Shown here piece after piece: positions 1,602 through 64,000 of a DNA stretch of 64,000 nucleotides. The DNA lies in the sequence record MZ291552.2; one strand, 5' to 3'. Below the pieces are notes generated by a model that was not told the DNA's origin, made no database searches, and saw only the letters and a program-made list of their open reading frames with translations. Both the position numbers and the translations under genes were made by a program. The first letter of the stretch is position 1, and each line of letters opens with the position of its first letter. Source of the DNA: Escherichia phage vB_EcoM-UFV09.

Positions 1602-3226
<1,625 letters not shown>

Positions 3227-3472: not shown

Positions 3473-3897
3473 TGATTCTAATCCCTGAAACTCATGAATT
3501 AGTTCTCGAGAATGTCGAAGCACTTATTCCTGAAGCACAGGGTCGCTTTGACGAGTTGTCTTCTGCTTTAAATAAAGACGATATAAATAAAATTATCGAG
3601 AATATGCTTGATGATGAAACTGATTTAGCGGTTGCATTAGCTTCTATTAATGAAAATATGCCGTTAAATGAATTTATCGTTAAACATGTTTCTGCCCGTG
3701 GTGAAATTACTCGCACTAAAGATCGCAAAACCCGCGAACGTAATGCATTTCAAACTACCGGGTTGTCTAAAGCAAAACGTAGACAAATTGCTCGTAAAGC
3801 TACCAAAACGAAGATTGCCAATCCAGCAGGTCAATCTCGTGCTCAGCGTAAGCGTAAAAAAGCTCTCAAACGCCGTAAAGCATTAGGATTAAGCTAA
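3472..3897 (+). CDS. 68: Prohead core protein
   Basis: 141 aa, same as T4 gp68; basic C-terminus; synteny. Confidence 0.8.
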
Positions 3898-4535
3898 TGA
3901 ATGAACCCCAATTACTAATTGAAACTTGGGGTCAACCTGGCGAAATTATTGATGGCGTACCAATGCTTGAATCCCATGATGGAAAAGACTTAGGTTTAAA
4001 ACCTGGTTTATACATCGAAGGAATATTCATGCAAGCGGAAGTCGTCAATAGAAATAAACGTCTTTATCCAAAACGTATATTAGAAAAAGCGGTAAAAGAC
4101 TATATCAATGAGCAAGTTTTAACTAAACAAGCTCTCGGAGAATTAAATCATCCTCCACGCGCTAATGTTGACCCGATGCAAGCCGCTATCATTATAGAAG
4201 ATATGTGGTGGAAAGGAAATGACGTATACGGACGAGCTCGTGTTATTGAAGGTGACCATGGTCCTGGAGATAAATTAGCAGCTAATATTCGTGCCGGATG
4301 GATTCCAGGAGTTTCTTCTCGTGGATTAGGTTCATTGACTGACACAAATAAAGGTTATCGTATCGTAAACGAAGGATTCAAATTAACTGTAGGTGTTGAT
4401 GCAGTATGGGGTCCAAGTGCTCCAGATGCATGGGTAACTCCTAAGGAAATTACAGAATCACAGACGGCGGAAGCCGATACAAGTGCCGATGACGCCTATA
4501 TGGCTCTCGCAGAGGCCATGAAAAAAGCGTTATAA
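3897..4535 (+). CDS. 21: Prohead core scaffold protease
   Basis: 212 aa, same as T4 gp21; position between 68 and 22. Confidence 0.85.
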   Translation: MNEPQLLIETWGQPGEIIDGVPMLESHDGKDLGLKPGLYIEGIFMQAEVVNRNKRLYPKRILEKAVKDYINEQVLTKQALGELNHPPRANVDPMQAAIIIEDMWWKGNDVYGRARVIEGDHGPGDKLAANIRAGWIPGVSSRGLGSLTDTNKGYRIVNEGFKLTVGVDAVWGPSAPDAWVTPKEITESQTAEADTSADDAYMALAEAMKKAL

Positions 4536-4565: not shown

Positions 4566-5375
4566 ATGCTTAAAGAACAACTGATTGCCGAAGCGCAGAA
4601 AATTGATGCTTCCGTTGCTCTTGATAGTATTTTCGAATCAGTTAATATTTCTCCGGAAGCAAAAGAAACTTTCGGCACTGTATTCGAAGCTACCGTCAAG
4701 CAGCACGCCGTTAAATTAGCTGAATCTCATATCGCTAAAATTGCTGAAAAAGCAGAAGAAGAAGTAGAAAAAAATAAAGAAGAAGCAGAAGAAAAAGCTG
4801 AGAAGAAAATCGCTGAGCAAGCTTCTAAATTCCTTGACCATCTTGCAAAAGAATGGCTCACTGAAAATAAATTAGCAGTAGATAAAGGTATCAAAGCCGA
4901 ACTGTTTGAATCCATGCTTGGTGGATTGAAAGAGCTCTTCGTTGAACACAACGTTGTTGTTCCAGAAGAATCAGTTGATGTTGTAGCTGAAATGGAAGAA
5001 GAACTGCAAGAACATAAAGAAGAATCAGCTCGTCTGTTCGAAGAACTCAATAAGCGTGACGCATATATCAATTATGTGCAGCGTGAAGTGGCATTGAGCG
5101 AAAGTACTAAAGATCTGACTGAGTCTCAAAAAGAAAAAGTCTCTGCTCTGGTCGAAGGTATTGATTATTCAGATGCATTCTCAAGCAAATTGAGTGCCAT
5201 CGTAGAAATGGTGAAGAAATCTAATAAAGATGAAAGCACTATTACTGAGAGTATAAATACTCCTGATACTGAAGCAGCCGGACTGAATTTCGTCACTGAA
5301 GCTGTAGAAGATAAATCTGCGCAAGGTGCAGAAGATATTGTAAGTGTATATGCGAAAGTCGCATCTCGTTTCTAA
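4566..5375 (+). CDS. 22: Major prohead scaffolding core protein
   Basis: 269 aa, same as T4 gp22; Glu/Lys-rich coiled-coil-like composition; synteny. Confidence 0.85.
   Translation: MLKEQLIAEAQKIDASVALDSIFESVNISPEAKETFGTVFEATVKQHAVKLAESHIAKIAEKAEEEVEKNKEEAEEKAEKKIAEQASKFLDHLAKEWLTENKLAVDKGIKAELFESMLGGLKELFVEHNVVVPEESVDVVAEMEEELQEHKEESARLFEELNKRDAYINYVQREVALSESTKDLTESQKEKVSALVEGIDYSDAFSSKLSAIVEMVKKSNKDESTITESINTPDTEAAGLNFVTEAVEDKSAQGAEDIVSVYAKVASRF
5252..5259 (+). promoter_or_regulatory. Candidate late promoter for gene 23, inside the 3' end of gene 22
   Basis: Exact TATAAATA about 135 bp upstream of the gene 23 start. Confidence 0.4.
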
Positions 5376-59858: not shown

Positions 59859-59863
59859 AATGA

Positions 59864-59877
59864 GGGGCTTCGGCCCC
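59864..59877 (+). terminator. Stem-loop with UUCG tetraloop directly after the gene 37 stop
   Basis: ggggc-ttcg-gcccc; weak U tract, so may be an attenuator or stability element. Confidence 0.4.
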
Positions 59878-59889
59878 TTGGAGGTTTAT

Positions 59890-60684
59890 ATGGCAGTTGA
59901 AGGACCGTGGGTAGGATGGTCTGCGAGGGTACAAACTGGAGACCCTTGGATGGGTGGTGCCGCGCAGAGATTGAGAATGGGAATTCCGTTTTGGATGAGT
60001 AATATGATAGGTCGATCTGTTGAAGTAATTCACACACTTGGAGCGGACCATAACTTCAATGGTCAATGGTTCCGAGATAGATGTTTTGAGGCAGGTAGTG
60101 CACCTATAGTGTTTAATATTACCGGAAATTTGGTATCATATTCTAGAGACGTTCCTTTATTCTTTATGTATGGAGATACACCTAATGAATATGTTCAGTT
60201 GAATATTGGTGGCGGCGTCCATATGTGGGGTAGAGGTGGACAAGGTGGATGGACTCATTCCGGCGGAGATGGTAATGGTCAACAAGGTGGTCATTGTATT
60301 CAAAATGACATCGGTGGACGATTAAGAATTAATAACGGTGGAGTAATTTGCGGTGGAGGTGGAGGTGGAGGTGGTATCGCTTATCGTCCTCGCTCTGGCG
60401 CAAAATGGCAAGATATTGGTGGTGGCGGTGGAAGACCATTTGGCCCAGGAGGTGGCGGCGGTTACTCGGGTGGCGCAGCTTCATACGACGGTCCAGGAGG
60501 TGGTTATCAATACGGAAATGCTCACTCCGGCCAGGGTGGCGATGCCGGAGGAAATGGACAAAATGCCTGGTCGGATGGCGGTAAAGTTCTAAAAGTTGGA
60601 GCTGGTGGCGCTGCCGGATATGCTGTTATAGGATCCGCTCCAACATGGCAAAATGTTGGAGTAATATATGGTCCAAGGGTATAA
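59890..60684 (+). CDS. 38: T2-type receptor-recognising adhesin with glycine-rich motifs
   Basis: 264 aa from MAVEGPW with GGAGG RBS; poly-Gly tracts separated by short variable segments; conserved C-terminus [22 protein letters not shown]. Confidence 0.8.
60352..60375 (+). repeat. (GGTGGA)x4 microsatellite encoding a poly-Gly tract in gene 38
   Basis: ggtggaggtggaggtggaggtggt read directly. Confidence 0.8.
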
Positions 60685-60714: not shown

Positions 60715-61371
60715 ATGGCAGCACCTAGAATATCATTTTCGCCCTCTGATATTCTATTTGGTGTTCTAGATCGCTTGTTCAAAGATAACGCTACCGGGAA
60801 AGTTCTTGCTTCCCGGGTAGCTGTCGTAATTCTTTTATTTATGATGGCGATTGTTTGGTATAGGGGAGATAGTTTCTTTGAGTACTATAAGCAATCAAAG
60901 TATGAAACATACAGTGAAATTATTGAAAAGGAAAGAAATGCACGCTTTGAATCTGTCGCCCTGGAACAACTCCAGATAGTTCACATATCATCTGAGGCAG
61001 ACTTTAGTGCGGTGTATTCTTTCCGCCCTAAAAACTTAAACTATTTTGTCGATATTATAGCATATGAAGGAAAATTACCTTCAACAATAAGTGAAAAATC
61101 ACTTGGAGGATATCCTGTTGATAAAACTATGGATGAATATGCAGTTCATTTAAATGGACGTCATTATTATTCCAACTCAAAATTTGCTTTTTTACCAACT
61201 AAAAAGCCTACTCCCGAAATAAACTACATGTACAGTTGTCCATATTTTAATTTGGATAATATCTATGCTGGAACGATAACCATGTACTGGTATAGAAATG
61301 ATCATATAAGTAATGACCGCCTTGAATCAATATGCGCCCAGGCGGCCAGAATATTAGGAAGGGCTAAATAA
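60715..61371 (+). CDS. t: Holin
   Basis: 218 aa, same as T4 T; N-terminal TM segment; sequence MAAPRISFSPSDILFGVLDRLFKDNATGKVLASR. Confidence 0.9.
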   Translation: MAAPRISFSPSDILFGVLDRLFKDNATGKVLASRVAVVILLFMMAIVWYRGDSFFEYYKQSKYETYSEIIEKERNARFESVALEQLQIVHISSEADFSAVYSFRPKNLNYFVDIIAYEGKLPSTISEKSLGGYPVDKTMDEYAVHLNGRHYYSNSKFAFLPTKKPTPEINYMYSCPYFNLDNIYAGTITMYWYRNDHISNDRLESICAQAARILGRAK

Positions 61372-61644
61372 TTATTTGTTCGTATACATCTCTAGATATC
61401 GATATACACCCTCAAAACCCTCGTTGAATTCGTCGATGAGGGTTTTCTTATCTTCTTGAGTTAATTCAGAAACAATTTTACGGAATGAATTCTGATTTAA
61501 TTTTCTACCTTCATGTGTTACTCCAATCTCATTCAGAAATGCAATAAAATTAGCACGATTTTCAACAATATCTTCTCTGGAAAATTTAATCAAAATAGAC
61601 GCAACAGTAATAATTTCACGAACTGTATCAATATTTTTATTCAT
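61372..61644 (-). CDS. asiA: Anti-sigma70 factor
   Basis: 90 aa; sequence MNKNIDTVREIITVASILIKFSREDIVENRANFIAF recognised as T4 AsiA. Confidence 0.9.
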   Translation of the reverse strand: MNKNIDTVREIITVASILIKFSREDIVENRANFIAFLNEIGVTHEGRKLNQNSFRKIVSELTQEDKKTLIDEFNEGFEGVYRYLEMYTNK

Positions 61645-61656
61645 TAACTATACCAC

Positions 61657-61809
61657 TCAATTAGTTGACTTTGTTATAATATCATCAGACGCTTGATTTG
61701 TAAACTGGTCTGTGTTATTTTCTTCAAAAATTTTTTCTACGAATTCCTTGAACGACTTACGTTCCTGAGCTACATTATGCTCGATTACTTTTTCAAGATT
61801 ATGACTCAT
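61657..61809 (-). CDS. Unlisted small acidic ORF (50 aa) between asiA and arn
   Basis: Hand-translated MSHNLEKVIEHNVAQERKSFKEFVEKIFEENNTDQFTNQASDDIITKSTN; its ATG overlaps the upstream stop as ATGA. Confidence 0.4.
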   Translation of the reverse strand: MSHNLEKVIEHNVAQERKSFKEFVEKIFEENNTDQFTNQASDDIITKSTN

Positions 61810-62084
61810 TCGAAATAATCTTCAATTTCATAATCATGGACGTAAATCATTATAGTTTTTAATACATCATCAATACTTTTTCCTGGAGCTGGAATTACGT
61901 AGAAATATCCTGCTTTTGAGAGGTCTTTATAAGTTCCAATCAGGAAATCATTATTCTCGAGATGTAGTTCTTCAACTAATTCATTAACAATTGAGTGGTA
62001 TAAATTTGGTAGAAACTTATGTAGCTTTTCTAGAATATCAATTTTGATTGTGTATTGAACCACAGACTGAGAATCAATAATCAT
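61806..62084 (-). CDS. arn: Anti-restriction nuclease (candidate DNA-mimic inhibitor of McrBC)
   Basis: 92 aa, same as T4 Arn; acidic C-terminus; position next to asiA. Confidence 0.6.
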   Translation of the reverse strand: MIIDSQSVVQYTIKIDILEKLHKFLPNLYHSIVNELVEELHLENNDFLIGTYKDLSKAGYFYVIPAPGKSIDDVLKTIMIYVHDYEIEDYFE

Positions 62085-62167
62085 AGACCTTCCCCTTATG
62101 TTTCTGTTTACGATTAGAATCTTTAAACGCTTTCTTCTTATCTTTATGAACAGAAGCTTTATTAAAA

Positions 62168-62386
62168 TTATGTTTTGCGACTAAATTGTTCATAGTGCTG
62201 AATTACCTCTCTTAAACATTTGCATGTGAATGAGAACTTTTTAGCTACACCACATTCAAATATATGTTCTCTTAAATCACGTGTATCAGTATATCCCATC
62301 TCAACAATAAAATGCCTTATTAGATTTTTATCTTTATCATTGAGAGAATTAAAATAATCAGATTTTGAATTAATTTCCCTGGCCAA
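62168..62386 (-). CDS. Hypothetical small protein
   Basis: 72-aa ORF with a Cys cluster. Confidence 0.5.
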   Translation of the reverse strand: MAREINSKSDYFNSLNDKDKNLIRHFIVEMGYTDTRDLREHIFECGVAKKFSFTCKCLREVIQHYEQFSRKT

Positions 62387-62582
62387 ATTGAATCACCTTC
62401 AGTTGACGTTTTAATTCTTTTATCATTTCTTCGTTCATCGCAATATAAAGATCGCGTAAAGCAGGTTTTAGCATTCCATTTACCGGAGAACTAAATGGGC
62501 ATACATAATCTTTTCCTACAAGCTTTTTGGTAAATTCCATATCACAAAATTTAAATGCTGGCTCATTCGCATAAATCCCCAA
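62370..62582 (-). CDS. Hypothetical small protein; may be the 3' part of a frameshifted gene extending to 62664
   Basis: 70-aa ORF; a 49-aa ORF in another frame lies directly upstream and the two join if one G is added to a GGGG run. Confidence 0.45.
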   Translation of the reverse strand: MGIYANEPAFKFCDMEFTKKLVGKDYVCPFSSPVNGMLKPALRDLYIAMNEEMIKELKRQLKVIQFGQGN

Positions 62583-62664
62583 TTAGTTGACATCATTTTA
62601 TTGGCATATTCCAGTGCCTGAATTTGATTCATAATTCCATCAATTTGAAACTTTTTAATATTCA

Positions 62665-63126
62665 TTAGTAAAGGTCCTCAGAGTAAAGTTCTTTTTCACT
62701 ACCACCACGTTCAATACGTACTTGTCCAGCGTAAGTTGCAATAATCATTGCTTCTTCGCGTGTCCAATAATTACTGTATTGGTCAATAAACCCTTGGTCA
62801 TCATCACAAACTTGTTGAGTAACTAATTGAGGTTTAACTACATCTAAAACTTCTGCCATATCTTTAGAATAATGACGAGCACCTGGAATAACGAGAGTTC
62901 GTCCATCTTTTAATTTAAAACGGTTGGCTGCACAGACAATTCGTCGTTGATACTTTTGGTTTTCATCCCAATACGCAGTCTGCCAACATATTTCAGGAAC
63001 TTCATCTAAAACATTTTGTTCTGTATATTCACCGCCGTAAGAAGCTAATTTAGCAGCCAGACTTTCCGGAGTCTCACGTAACAAAGCTTTATCTAACAGA
63101 GCTAAACGTTCTTTAAAAGTTTTCAT
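62665..63126 (-). CDS. Hypothetical protein
   Basis: 153-aa ORF. Confidence 0.55.
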
Positions 63127-63452
63127 TTAAACCATCCTTTAATACGTTGCCACAAAGTTTTCTGTTGAGCTTTGTTAACACCAATTGAGCGAATAACCGG
63201 TTGAGATTCCTGGAATTCTTTATAATCAGCAAGATAAATTTCGTAAGCTGCATCTGTAAAGGAACTTATCGCTGCCATAAAATTATTACGAATACCTACT
63301 GGAGCATCTTTACTTTCACGAATAATCATGTATTTACCAGTCTTAATCTTTACGATAGTTCCAAGATAAGCTCCATGATACCAGATGTCCCAACCCTCTT
63401 GAGTAGGTTCTGCACAACGACGAAGTTCATTGACAATTTCTAACTTGTTCAT
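63123..63452 (-). CDS. Hypothetical protein
   Basis: 109-aa ORF overlapping the neighbour stop. Confidence 0.55.
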
Positions 63453-63462
63453 TATTTATTCC

Positions 63463-64000
63463 TCACAGTTCAGATGCTACAGTTATTACTGCTTCAATGT
63501 TTTCTGCTGAGCGTTTAATGTCAAGATACACATTACCGTTTTTAGCGATTTTACATGACATTCCGATGTCAGTAAATTTCTGAATATGATGTTCCATCAT
63601 TTTGTATCCAAAAATTCGCATGTTTCCATTATTGTTAATTTCAAAATTGCGAATTCCGTGAGTGCGTTTTTCTAAAATAGCAAGATAGTTACTGCGGTAA
63701 GTTTCAACCTTTTTAAGAACAAATCCATTTTCATCTAAAAGTTTTAACATGAGGTCTTTATCTTCTTCCATATCGGAAGTAATTTCGCGAGCTTTACGAG
63801 TTGCTCGTTTTTTCAGCAGTTCGGGAGCATTTTCCTGTGCATATAAAGTTGCTGCATTTGAAATAATATCCTGAGCTTCACCAGTAATGATTAATCCATC
63901 ACCAGATTTCTCTACCAGGCCTTTTTTAATCAATACCCCAATATTATTATTAACTACTGCGTTACCTAAATCTGGATGCACCTCACGAACTTCTGCAGCT
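63463..64000 (-). CDS. motA: MotA middle-transcription activator, truncated at window end (N-terminus outside window)
   Basis: Sequence HPDLGNAVVNNNIGVLIKKGLVEKSGDGLIITGEAQDI recognised as T4 MotA; frame open to the window edge. Confidence 0.85.
   Translation of the reverse strand, partial: AAEVREVHPDLGNAVVNNNIGVLIKKGLVEKSGDGLIITGEAQDIISNAATLYAQENAPELLKKRATRKAREITSDMEEDKDLMLKLLDENGFVLKKVETYRSNYLAILEKRTHGIRNFEINNNGNMRIFGYKMMEHHIQKFTDIGMSCKIAKNGNVYLDIKRSAENIEAVITVASEL

Follow-up and report, generated by a model that had tools for sequence, protein, structure and literature searches.

The genes between arn and motA in Escherichia phage vB_EcoM-UFV09 raise a simple question: what are they, and do their products act against the host or its defences? 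We addressed this question in a 64,000-nucleotide (nt) stretch of the phage DNA (record MZ291552.2; hereafter the window, with positions counted from its first letter), in which an earlier note, made from the sequence alone, had placed four uncharacterised open reading frames (ORFs) of 72, 70, 153 and 109 amino acids (aa) within a host-directed module. The four ORFs do lie on the minus strand between arn and motA (62168-62386, 62370-62582, 62665-63126 and 63123-63452), and the module is flanked by asiA, arn and motA, as had been claimed. That the genes might be new, however, did not hold: arn.1-arn.4 are long-known, named T4 genes present in hundreds of deposited genomes, and the region very probably constitutes the arn.4-arn.3-arn.2-arn.1 part of the T-even arn operon. 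The genes of the region are as follows.

61806-62084, minus strand: arn, encoding the McrBC-inhibiting DNA mimic (Pfam DM_Arn, 3.1e-53); the last characterised gene of the operon and a flanking landmark
62074-62193, minus strand: 39-aa ORF of the Pfam family DUF7230 (1.8e-11; phrog_1359, 1.8e-22)
62168-62386, minus strand: arn.1, 72 aa, with a TTG start (phrog_4452)
62370-62665, minus strand: arn.2, split into the fragments 62516-62665 and 62370-62582 (Pfam PF26819 Phage_T4_Y16C; phrog_1844)
62665-63126, minus strand: arn.3, 153 aa, with a two-helix module at the N terminus followed by a core (Pfam PF26092 T4_Y16D; phrog_839, 4e-73)
63123-63452, minus strand: arn.4, 109 aa (Pfam PF26821 Phage_T4_Y16F; phrog_1594)
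63463 onward, minus strand: motA, the neighbour of arn.4

At the DNA level, positions 61300-64000 are 100% identical to the corresponding DNA of the Escherichia phages vB_EcoM-UFV05, UFV06, UFV10 and UFV11 and 97-98% identical to that of hundreds of further Tequatrovirus genomes; phages annotated with T4 gene names share 97% DNA identity with the region. Gene order and orientation between motA and arn/asiA are those of the T-even arn operon, which on the minus strand of vB_Eco_NR1 and of the T4 reference runs motA, arn.4, arn.3, arn.2, arn.1, arn, asiA.1, asiA. Protein homology to T4 Arn.1-Arn.4 leads to the same assignment, in that tblastn against T4 gave identities of 99% for Arn.4, 83% for Arn.3, 98% for Arn.2 (with the intact vB_Eco_NR1 copy as the query, the window's own arn.2 being split by a frameshift) and 100% for Arn.1, and the window's asiA has a Pfam match of its own (1e-42). 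All four ORFs have PHROG matches (1e-33 to 4e-73) and are kept as protein in divergent T4-like genomes, and so they are not chance ORFs; none of them matches a housekeeping protein. The arn.1-arn.4 genes of T4 and T2 (NP_049869-NP_049872) share with those of the window their position between motA and arn, 83-100% protein identity, their Pfam and PHROG families, and a site for the host RNA ArcZ at the 3' end of arn.2. What sets the window apart from T4 is a frameshift in arn.2 that T4 does not have, an Arn.3 N-terminal module that is only 45% identical, and longer arn.1 and arn.4 genes, which reflect a problem of the T4 annotation rather than a biological difference. (Note that the Pfam names given for arn.2, arn.3 and arn.4 are from precomputed Pfam matches, and that these families were named after the T4 proteins themselves.)

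In the window the array runs head to tail in the order motA, arn.4, arn.3, arn.2, arn.1, the 39-aa DUF7230 gene, arn and asiA.1, and from motA to asiA.1 all genes abut or overlap, with start and stop codons touching or overlapping throughout. On the minus strand of the region we detected no promoter or terminator signals above shuffled expectation, and no MotA-box middle promoter pattern was present in 61300-64000. The overlapping genes, together with the lack of an internal promoter or terminator signal, lend indirect support to one co-transcribed unit here. In T2 the arn operon has been described as one middle-mode mRNA, RNA sequencing having found five genes abundant in one transcript, and His-Arn.2 was detected by immunoblot, so that expression of such genes is documented (10.64898/2026.06.19.733364). 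The same preprint, of June 2026, still gives the functions of arn.1-arn.4 as unknown and speculates about counter-defence; in this respect the genes are as uncharacterised as they had been said to be.

The lengths of 72 and 109 aa differ from those in the T4 reference annotation, which records only the C-terminal parts of arn.1 (43 aa) and arn.4 (68 aa). Comparison of start sites and of coding patterns nonetheless shows that the 72-aa, TTG-started arn.1 and the 109-aa arn.4, as given in the earlier note, are the true forms. In the case of arn.4, T4 (NC_000866) has ATA where the window and vB_Eco_NR1 have ATG, the preceding 41 codons being otherwise intact, and these upstream 41 codons are conserved in all 30 of the homologues that were aligned. 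The 68-aa annotation is an artefact of the ATG-to-ATA change; in T4, translation of arn.4 either begins at a non-canonical codon or yields a truncated protein. (The upstream part of arn.4 in T4 occupies positions 4835-4957 of its locus, minus strand, and corresponds to 63330-63452 of the window.) In the case of arn.1, in eight divergent T4-like loci the place of the window's TTG is taken by an ATG that follows a Shine-Dalgarno sequence, and the same loci have Leu in place of Met30, the start annotated in T4. Codons 5-29 of arn.1 vary by codon position much as coding sequence does, with 14, 10 and 21 variable sites of 25 at the first, second and third positions, as compared with 21, 14 and 32 of 36 in the annotated part of the gene. 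Over the same codons there are no indels and all 13 loci keep the frame open, whereas the other two frames contain 1-8 stops.

Three of the four ORFs therefore stand as genes (arn.1, arn.3 and arn.4), and to them must be added the 39-aa DUF7230 gene, which the earlier note had not listed. This ORF is basic, with an isoelectric point (pI) of 10.2, and shares 11 nt with the beginning of arn and 26 nt with the end of arn.1. Nearly all T4-like loci compared contain it, at identities of 51-97% (65-97% when the full length is considered); T4 is among them, although the ORF is not annotated there. With arn.1 and arn.4 at their true lengths and the 39-aa gene in place, every intergenic gap of the T4 annotation vanishes.

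The 70-aa ORF, in contrast, is the C-terminal fragment of arn.2. Alignment with vB_Eco_NR1 indicated that a single A is missing at about 62576/62577 (GGGGAATTT becoming GGGGATTT), which breaks a gene that elsewhere encodes 98 aa. The N-terminal fragment (62516-62665) is 49 aa long, 30 of them native, and the C-terminal fragment, the 70-aa ORF itself (62370-62582), has no convincing ribosome-binding site in the sequence as we read it; of the 98 positions of phrog_1844, the 49-aa ORF covers 1-32 and the 70-aa ORF 30-97. In the window genome the 70-aa ORF thus appears to be a pseudogene fragment rather than a gene. A 66-nt probe over the frameshift site matched 332 phage records; among the matches listed, only the four UFV genomes matched without a gap, and the other eight records aligned over 67 record bases at 98.5% identity, as expected if the extra base is kept. 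The frameshift accordingly seems to be private to one set of near-identical isolates, and is either a true lineage-specific loss or an assembly error. As a separate observation, the frameshift would halt ribosomes on arn.2 about 130 nt upstream of the arn.1 start, and translation of arn.1 could drop.

The arn.2-arn.1 junction is also the site of an RNA-level mechanism described for T2. In particular, the host small RNA (sRNA) ArcZ pairs with T2 arn.2 at +285 to +294 and shields the mRNA from RNase E, ArcZ-dependent stabilisation as well as suppression by deletion of mcrC was shown, and a putative RNase E motif, GCAUU, was located 11 nt before the annotated ATG of arn.1, within what was described as a '70-nt intergenic region' (10.64898/2026.06.19.733364). 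Both the ArcZ sequence and the GCAUU motif are present in the window, as in the T-even arn operon.

62373-62382, minus strand: ArcZ pairing site CCAGGGAAAT, intact in the window, with its position taken from the preprint; it equals arn.1 codons 2-4 (TTG GCC AGG GAA ATT)
62311-62315, minus strand: GCATT (GCAUU), inside the conserved arn.1 codons Arg24-His25-Phe26

The complementarity of CCAGGGAAAT to ArcZ is taken from the preprint and from the ArcZ sequence. With arn.1 at 72 aa, both the ArcZ site and the GCAUU motif lie inside the arn.1 coding sequence, and the '70-nt intergenic region' is itself coding. Part of the conservation reported for these elements may therefore stem from protein-coding constraint, and we infer that ArcZ could act on the translation of arn.1. 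With respect to geometry, the ArcZ site falls on the stretch of arn.1 around its TTG start (62373-62386, minus strand), the arn.2 stop lies 11 nt downstream and the two genes overlap by 17 nt; translational coupling and sRNA control may meet at this overlap.

An RNA-level account can be carried further, to the view that the arn.2-arn.1 stretch is mainly a cis-regulatory RNA platform, serving ArcZ and RNase E in the control of the downstream arn gene, and that the encoded peptides are secondary. The ArcZ-dependent stabilisation and the suppression by deletion of mcrC point in this direction, as do the intact ArcZ site of the window and the tolerance of the UFV phages for the arn.2 frameshift. 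The supposed intergenic region, however, evolves as coding sequence, Arn.1 is kept in phages that have no arn.2, no ArcZ site or no arn altogether, and the Arn.2 protein retains 33-66% identity across genera; moreover, RNA and protein roles can coexist. We consider it quite unlikely that the stretch is primarily such a platform.

If the genes are kept for their products, the question becomes what kind of proteins these are. The earlier note had found no recognisable motif in them and had proposed anti-restriction as one candidate function. The first statement needs qualification: all four products fall into described families, and Arn.3 matches the profile of the antitoxin CmdA, but the families are ones without known function. 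Indeed, Pfam, NCBIfam and PADLOC scans of all ORFs returned only DUF-type families and the CmdA-profile match, with nothing for Arn.1 or Arn.2 in NCBIfam or PADLOC, and neither of these two had a significant relative in a profile search of the PDB. Searches of the PDB with Arn.1-Arn.4, by single sequence as well as by profile, reached best E values of 0.08-0.7, none of them significant; the near-matches in this range, to the C-terminal helix of YfiA, a phage RNA polymerase and the CRISPR CT1133 protein, were taken as chance. As judged from these comparisons, all four products belong to phage families that have no known function and no similarity to Arn.

The anti-restriction proposal fared less well. 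Many GenBank records, and the description of phrog_4452, go so far as to call the products of arn.1-arn.4 'anti-restriction nucleases' related to Arn. The label is backed by the product names of deposited genomes and by that one family description, and it follows the positional gene names arn.1-arn.4. Arn shares with Arn.1-Arn.4 its operon and a similar size, and Arn.3 is likewise acidic (pI 4.9, as compared with 4.7 for Arn). Within the window, though, DM_Arn matches arn alone, BLASTP of Arn against Arn.1-Arn.4 returned nothing, the predicted folds differ from that of Arn, and the models bear no resemblance to a nuclease fold. Furthermore, Arn is an acidic DNA mimic, whereas Arn.1 (pI 8.5), Arn.2 (9.2) and Arn.4 (9.2) are basic and lack the acidic surface of such a mimic, and Arn.3, for all its acidity, is unrelated to Arn. 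That arn.1-arn.4 encode nucleases of this description is scarcely credible; the GenBank label is a product of name propagation and is already contradicted by the sequence comparisons.

The CmdA-profile match brings Arn.3 to the fore. PD-T4-9 corresponds to CmdTAC, a toxin-antitoxin-chaperone system that acts by abortive infection through an mRNA ADP-ribosyltransferase and is aimed at T-even phages (Vassallo 2022, 2024); in this system CmdA begins with a pair of helices and continues as a disordered chaperone-addiction tail that ends in LAA (CmdTAC paper). Arn.3 can be divided into two parts.

63037-63126, minus strand: Arn.3 residues 1-30, a helix-turn-helix hairpin that matches positions 1-30 of the PADLOC profile PD-T4-9_B (CmdA antitoxin)
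62668-62997, minus strand: Arn.3 residues 44-153, the T4_Y16D core, delimited from alignments and a profile search

The hairpin matched the 77-position PD-T4-9_B profile with an E value of 3.5e-8 and 32 bits, and the same profile match was found in 9 of 41 Arn.3 family members and in an unrelated protein of a Jedunavirus. Structure prediction, which had been proposed for these proteins, gave a confident AlphaFold2 model of Arn.3 (predicted local distance difference test score (pLDDT) 88.5, predicted template modelling score (pTM) 0.82), with helices at residues 4-11 and 20-29; at the level of the profile, therefore, Arn.3 has the N-terminal helix pair of CmdA, the likeness extending over some 30 residues. 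The remainder differs. Positions 31-77 of the profile are unmatched, and Arn.3 is folded and ends in LYSEDLY rather than in a disordered addiction tail with an LAA or AA ClpXP degron; its gene is phage-encoded and lies between arn.4 and arn.2 rather than between the genes for CmdT and the SecB-like CmdC; and its module is fused to T4_Y16D.

Two properties of the hairpin bear on its possible role. First, a 35-residue segment of Arn.3 is 69% identical to a stretch inside gp63, a 320-aa protein of the Klebsiella Jedunavirus Geezett, which indicates that the module is mobile. Second, among close relatives the module is 45-77% identical and the core 83-100% identical (module 45% and core 97% between the window and T4; module 63% and core 100% between the window and Bas38), and fast divergence of a module beside a slow core is the pattern that would be expected of an arms-race interface. 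Proteins of the Geezett type are of some note in themselves: at Geezett 2198-3160 and at a second locus (63-1127) there is an acidic, proline-rich protein of 320-354 aa with an internal Arn.3/CmdA-like module, followed by a segment 'TGTPWDERIHS..ALNADGTWRLRR', and the gene adjoins an exonuclease gene in Jedunavirus. Attempts to recover CmdA itself yielded none, whether plasmids were searched by tblastn with the module, E. coli genomes by blastn or GTDB genomes by a degenerate-pattern scan. A word-indexed protein search with the 45-aa Arn.3 N terminus returned two short fragments only, and a motif scan of IMG/VR returned T4-like and Geezett-like phages only, plus one motif-only protein that did not match the CmdA profile.

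These features raise the possibility that Arn.3 is an orphan antitoxin-like counter-defence protein, the hairpin of which binds and neutralises ADP-ribosyltransferase toxins of the CmdT type; Arn.3 would be stable, having neither addiction tail nor ClpXP degron, and its N-terminal variants would fit different toxin alleles. The profile match to positions 1-30, a two-helix architecture that fits the published description of CmdA, a C terminus that is LYSEDLY and not LAA, and a hypervariable hairpin beside a nearly invariant core are all in keeping with such a role, and T4-like phages do carry orphan antitoxin-like counter-defences, some of them derived from antitoxins (PMC11257639). The phenotypes of characterised phages speak against it. 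Of the BASEL T-even phages, only Bas35 and Bas38 are spared by the CmdTAC system of ECOR22; the others are restricted 10^2- to 10^5-fold, and the mutations by which T4 escapes were mapped to alt.-3 rather than to arn.3 (CmdTAC paper). Bas36 (Paracelsus), the Arn.3 N terminus of which is identical to that of the window, has the highest CmdA-profile score of Bas35, Bas36 and Bas38 (31.3 bits) and yet is sensitive; the scores of the resistant phages Bas35 and Bas38 are 25.6 and 28.0 bits, that of sensitive T4 is 16.4 bits, and among the BASEL phages the score did not correlate with resistance. Because Bas36 is sensitive despite an identical module, Arn.3 does not defeat ECOR22 CmdTAC, and Arn.3 of the type found in the window would not be expected to protect against that allele. 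In addition, the occurrence of the module in a long, acidic, proline-rich Jedunavirus protein suggests a generic helical module, and the likeness to CmdA is one of profiles. We regard direct neutralisation of CmdT-type toxins by Arn.3 as distinctly improbable. The homology to CmdA could mean that Arn.3 is specific for CmdT alleles other than this one, that the hairpin is a generic helical adaptor, or that a prophage-borne antitoxin captured a phage module. For the host-takeover or defence role that the earlier note had also entertained, then, a CmdA-like module was found, but the correlation with CmdTAC resistance was not. Bas35 (WilhelmHis), which is CmdTAC-resistant, also carries an extra 51-aa ORF between arn.3 and arn.4 (3841-3996), which has no PADLOC match.

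The core of Arn.3 presents a different picture. The Pfam family PF26092 matches the identical protein over a core of about 95 residues together with its motifs, and homologues have in common a core of about 95-110 residues. A profile search of 1.84 billion representatives retrieved 2,573 proteins with an E value of 1e-3 or lower, 1,000 of them with one of 1e-10 or lower, each representative being a cluster at 50% identity. The domain occurs either standing alone (83-110 aa) or at the C terminus of proteins of about 200-434 aa with N-terminal parts that have no Pfam domain, and all members tested belong to phrog_839. Invariant in the family are an Ala, the Arg-His of RHY, the Gln-Gly-Phe of QGF, the Arg of TREEA and the Gln of AGQ, as well as the Leu, Glu and Tyr of LYSEDLY at the extreme C terminus; nearly invariant are Asp115 and a Cys, the latter often being Ser. 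We would guess, from the invariant Arg, His, Gln and Tyr, that the domain binds a phosphorylated or nucleotide ligand. No relative of the domain was found in the PDB by fold or by sequence, and a survey of gene neighbourhoods in other phages revealed no consistent partner: T4_Y16D lies near DNA polymerase A in one setting, RNA-ligase-like and NadR/PnuC-like genes in another, and RNase H and SMC-like genes in a third. An E2/UBC-like reading of Arn.3, prompted by two weak, sub-threshold matches (Pfam Prok-E2_B and PADLOC E1-E2), had no structural support and was rejected.

In view of these data, Arn.1-Arn.4, or at least Arn.3, might instead be accessories of nucleic-acid or nucleotide metabolism rather than anti-defence proteins, T4_Y16D being a small enzyme or ligand-binding domain in replication or RNA repair. 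Such a role would accord with the very wide distribution of the domain (the 2,573 clusters at 50% identity), with its invariant Arg-His, Gln, Arg, Gln, Glu and Tyr and nearly invariant Asp, with the polymerase, RNA-ligase-like, NadR/PnuC-like and RNase H genes among its neighbours, and with the basic character of Arn.1, Arn.2 and Arn.4 (pI 8.5-9.2). On the other hand, those neighbours differ between phages, the domain resembles no known enzyme fold or family, and the nearly invariant Cys, being replaced by Ser in many members, is not an obvious catalytic nucleophile. We judge a metabolic role of this kind to be unlikely. On an 84-kilobase phage contig (4002-8540), a T4_Y16D gene directly follows an RNA-ligase-like gene near NadR-like and PnuC-like genes of NAD salvage; this is a single case, which suggests something only when set beside the ADP-ribosylation lead.

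The reading that we favour, tentatively and as something possible rather than probable, is that arn.1-arn.4 encode accessory proteins which the phage can do without, which are directed at the host or its defences and which work by binding, not by restriction-type chemistry. A counter-defence role is plausible from context and is a view common to the literature. Dmd, AdfA, gp30.3/AdfN and TifA are orphan antitoxin-like and toxin-binding counter-defence proteins of T-even phages. They are small, non-essential proteins that T4-like phages make in the early or middle phase, and Arn.1-Arn.4 have no homology to any of them. Under the reading favoured here, Arn.3 would consist of a rapidly diverging hairpin, homologous to the toxin-facing N terminus of CmdA, joined to a conserved T4_Y16D core; the hairpin would be the interchangeable part, used for targeting or neutralising, and the conserved activity would reside in the core. 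The most specific version of this proposal, in which an antitoxin-derived, exchangeable hairpin targets CmdT-type toxins or another host partner and thereby delivers a T4_Y16D domain that may bind or process a nucleotide or ADP-ribose-type ligand, we hold to be improbable. The converse, namely that the prophage-borne CmdA copied a module of T-even phages, could fit the same data.

Several findings weigh against the favoured reading. No experiment assigns a function to any of arn.1-arn.4, as the June 2026 preprint makes plain; the link between Arn.3 and CmdA comes from a profile match; Bas36 is CmdTAC-sensitive with an identical module; T4_Y16D has neither a structural relative nor a constant genomic partner; and the frameshift, provided that it is genuine, makes arn.2 a gene that the UFV lineage, at least, can do without.

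Two further observations concern the phages themselves. The gp38 gene of the window (59860-60684, plus strand) encodes a 274-aa, glycine-rich adhesin of the T2/T6 type and not an assembly chaperone of the T4 type, and the tail-fibre module makes the phage T2-like, though it is classed as Tequatrovirus. In the 61.8-kilobase record of Klebsiella phage SAKp28 (1282-5084), the motA-arn.4-arn.3-arn.2 block occurs twice, inverted, in what looks like a misassembled or partial T4-like genome.

As a discovery of genes this analysis adds little, since the four are catalogued in T4 and their unknown status is already stated in the literature. What it changes is the annotation of the operon, which in current use is incomplete: with 72 aa for arn.1, 109 aa for arn.4 and a DUF7230 gene in the one gap that remained, the operon is left with no real intergenic regions. 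The presence of the ArcZ and RNase E sites inside arn.1 changes how the regulatory model for the operon should be tested. T4_Y16D emerges as a large phage domain family, of more than 2,500 clusters, that has no structural or functional assignment, and the CmdA-like hairpin of Arn.3 provides one concrete, testable lead. If that lead is correct, in either direction of transfer, a defence antitoxin would be tied directly, by evolution, to a phage operon in which an anti-restriction protein is already encoded.

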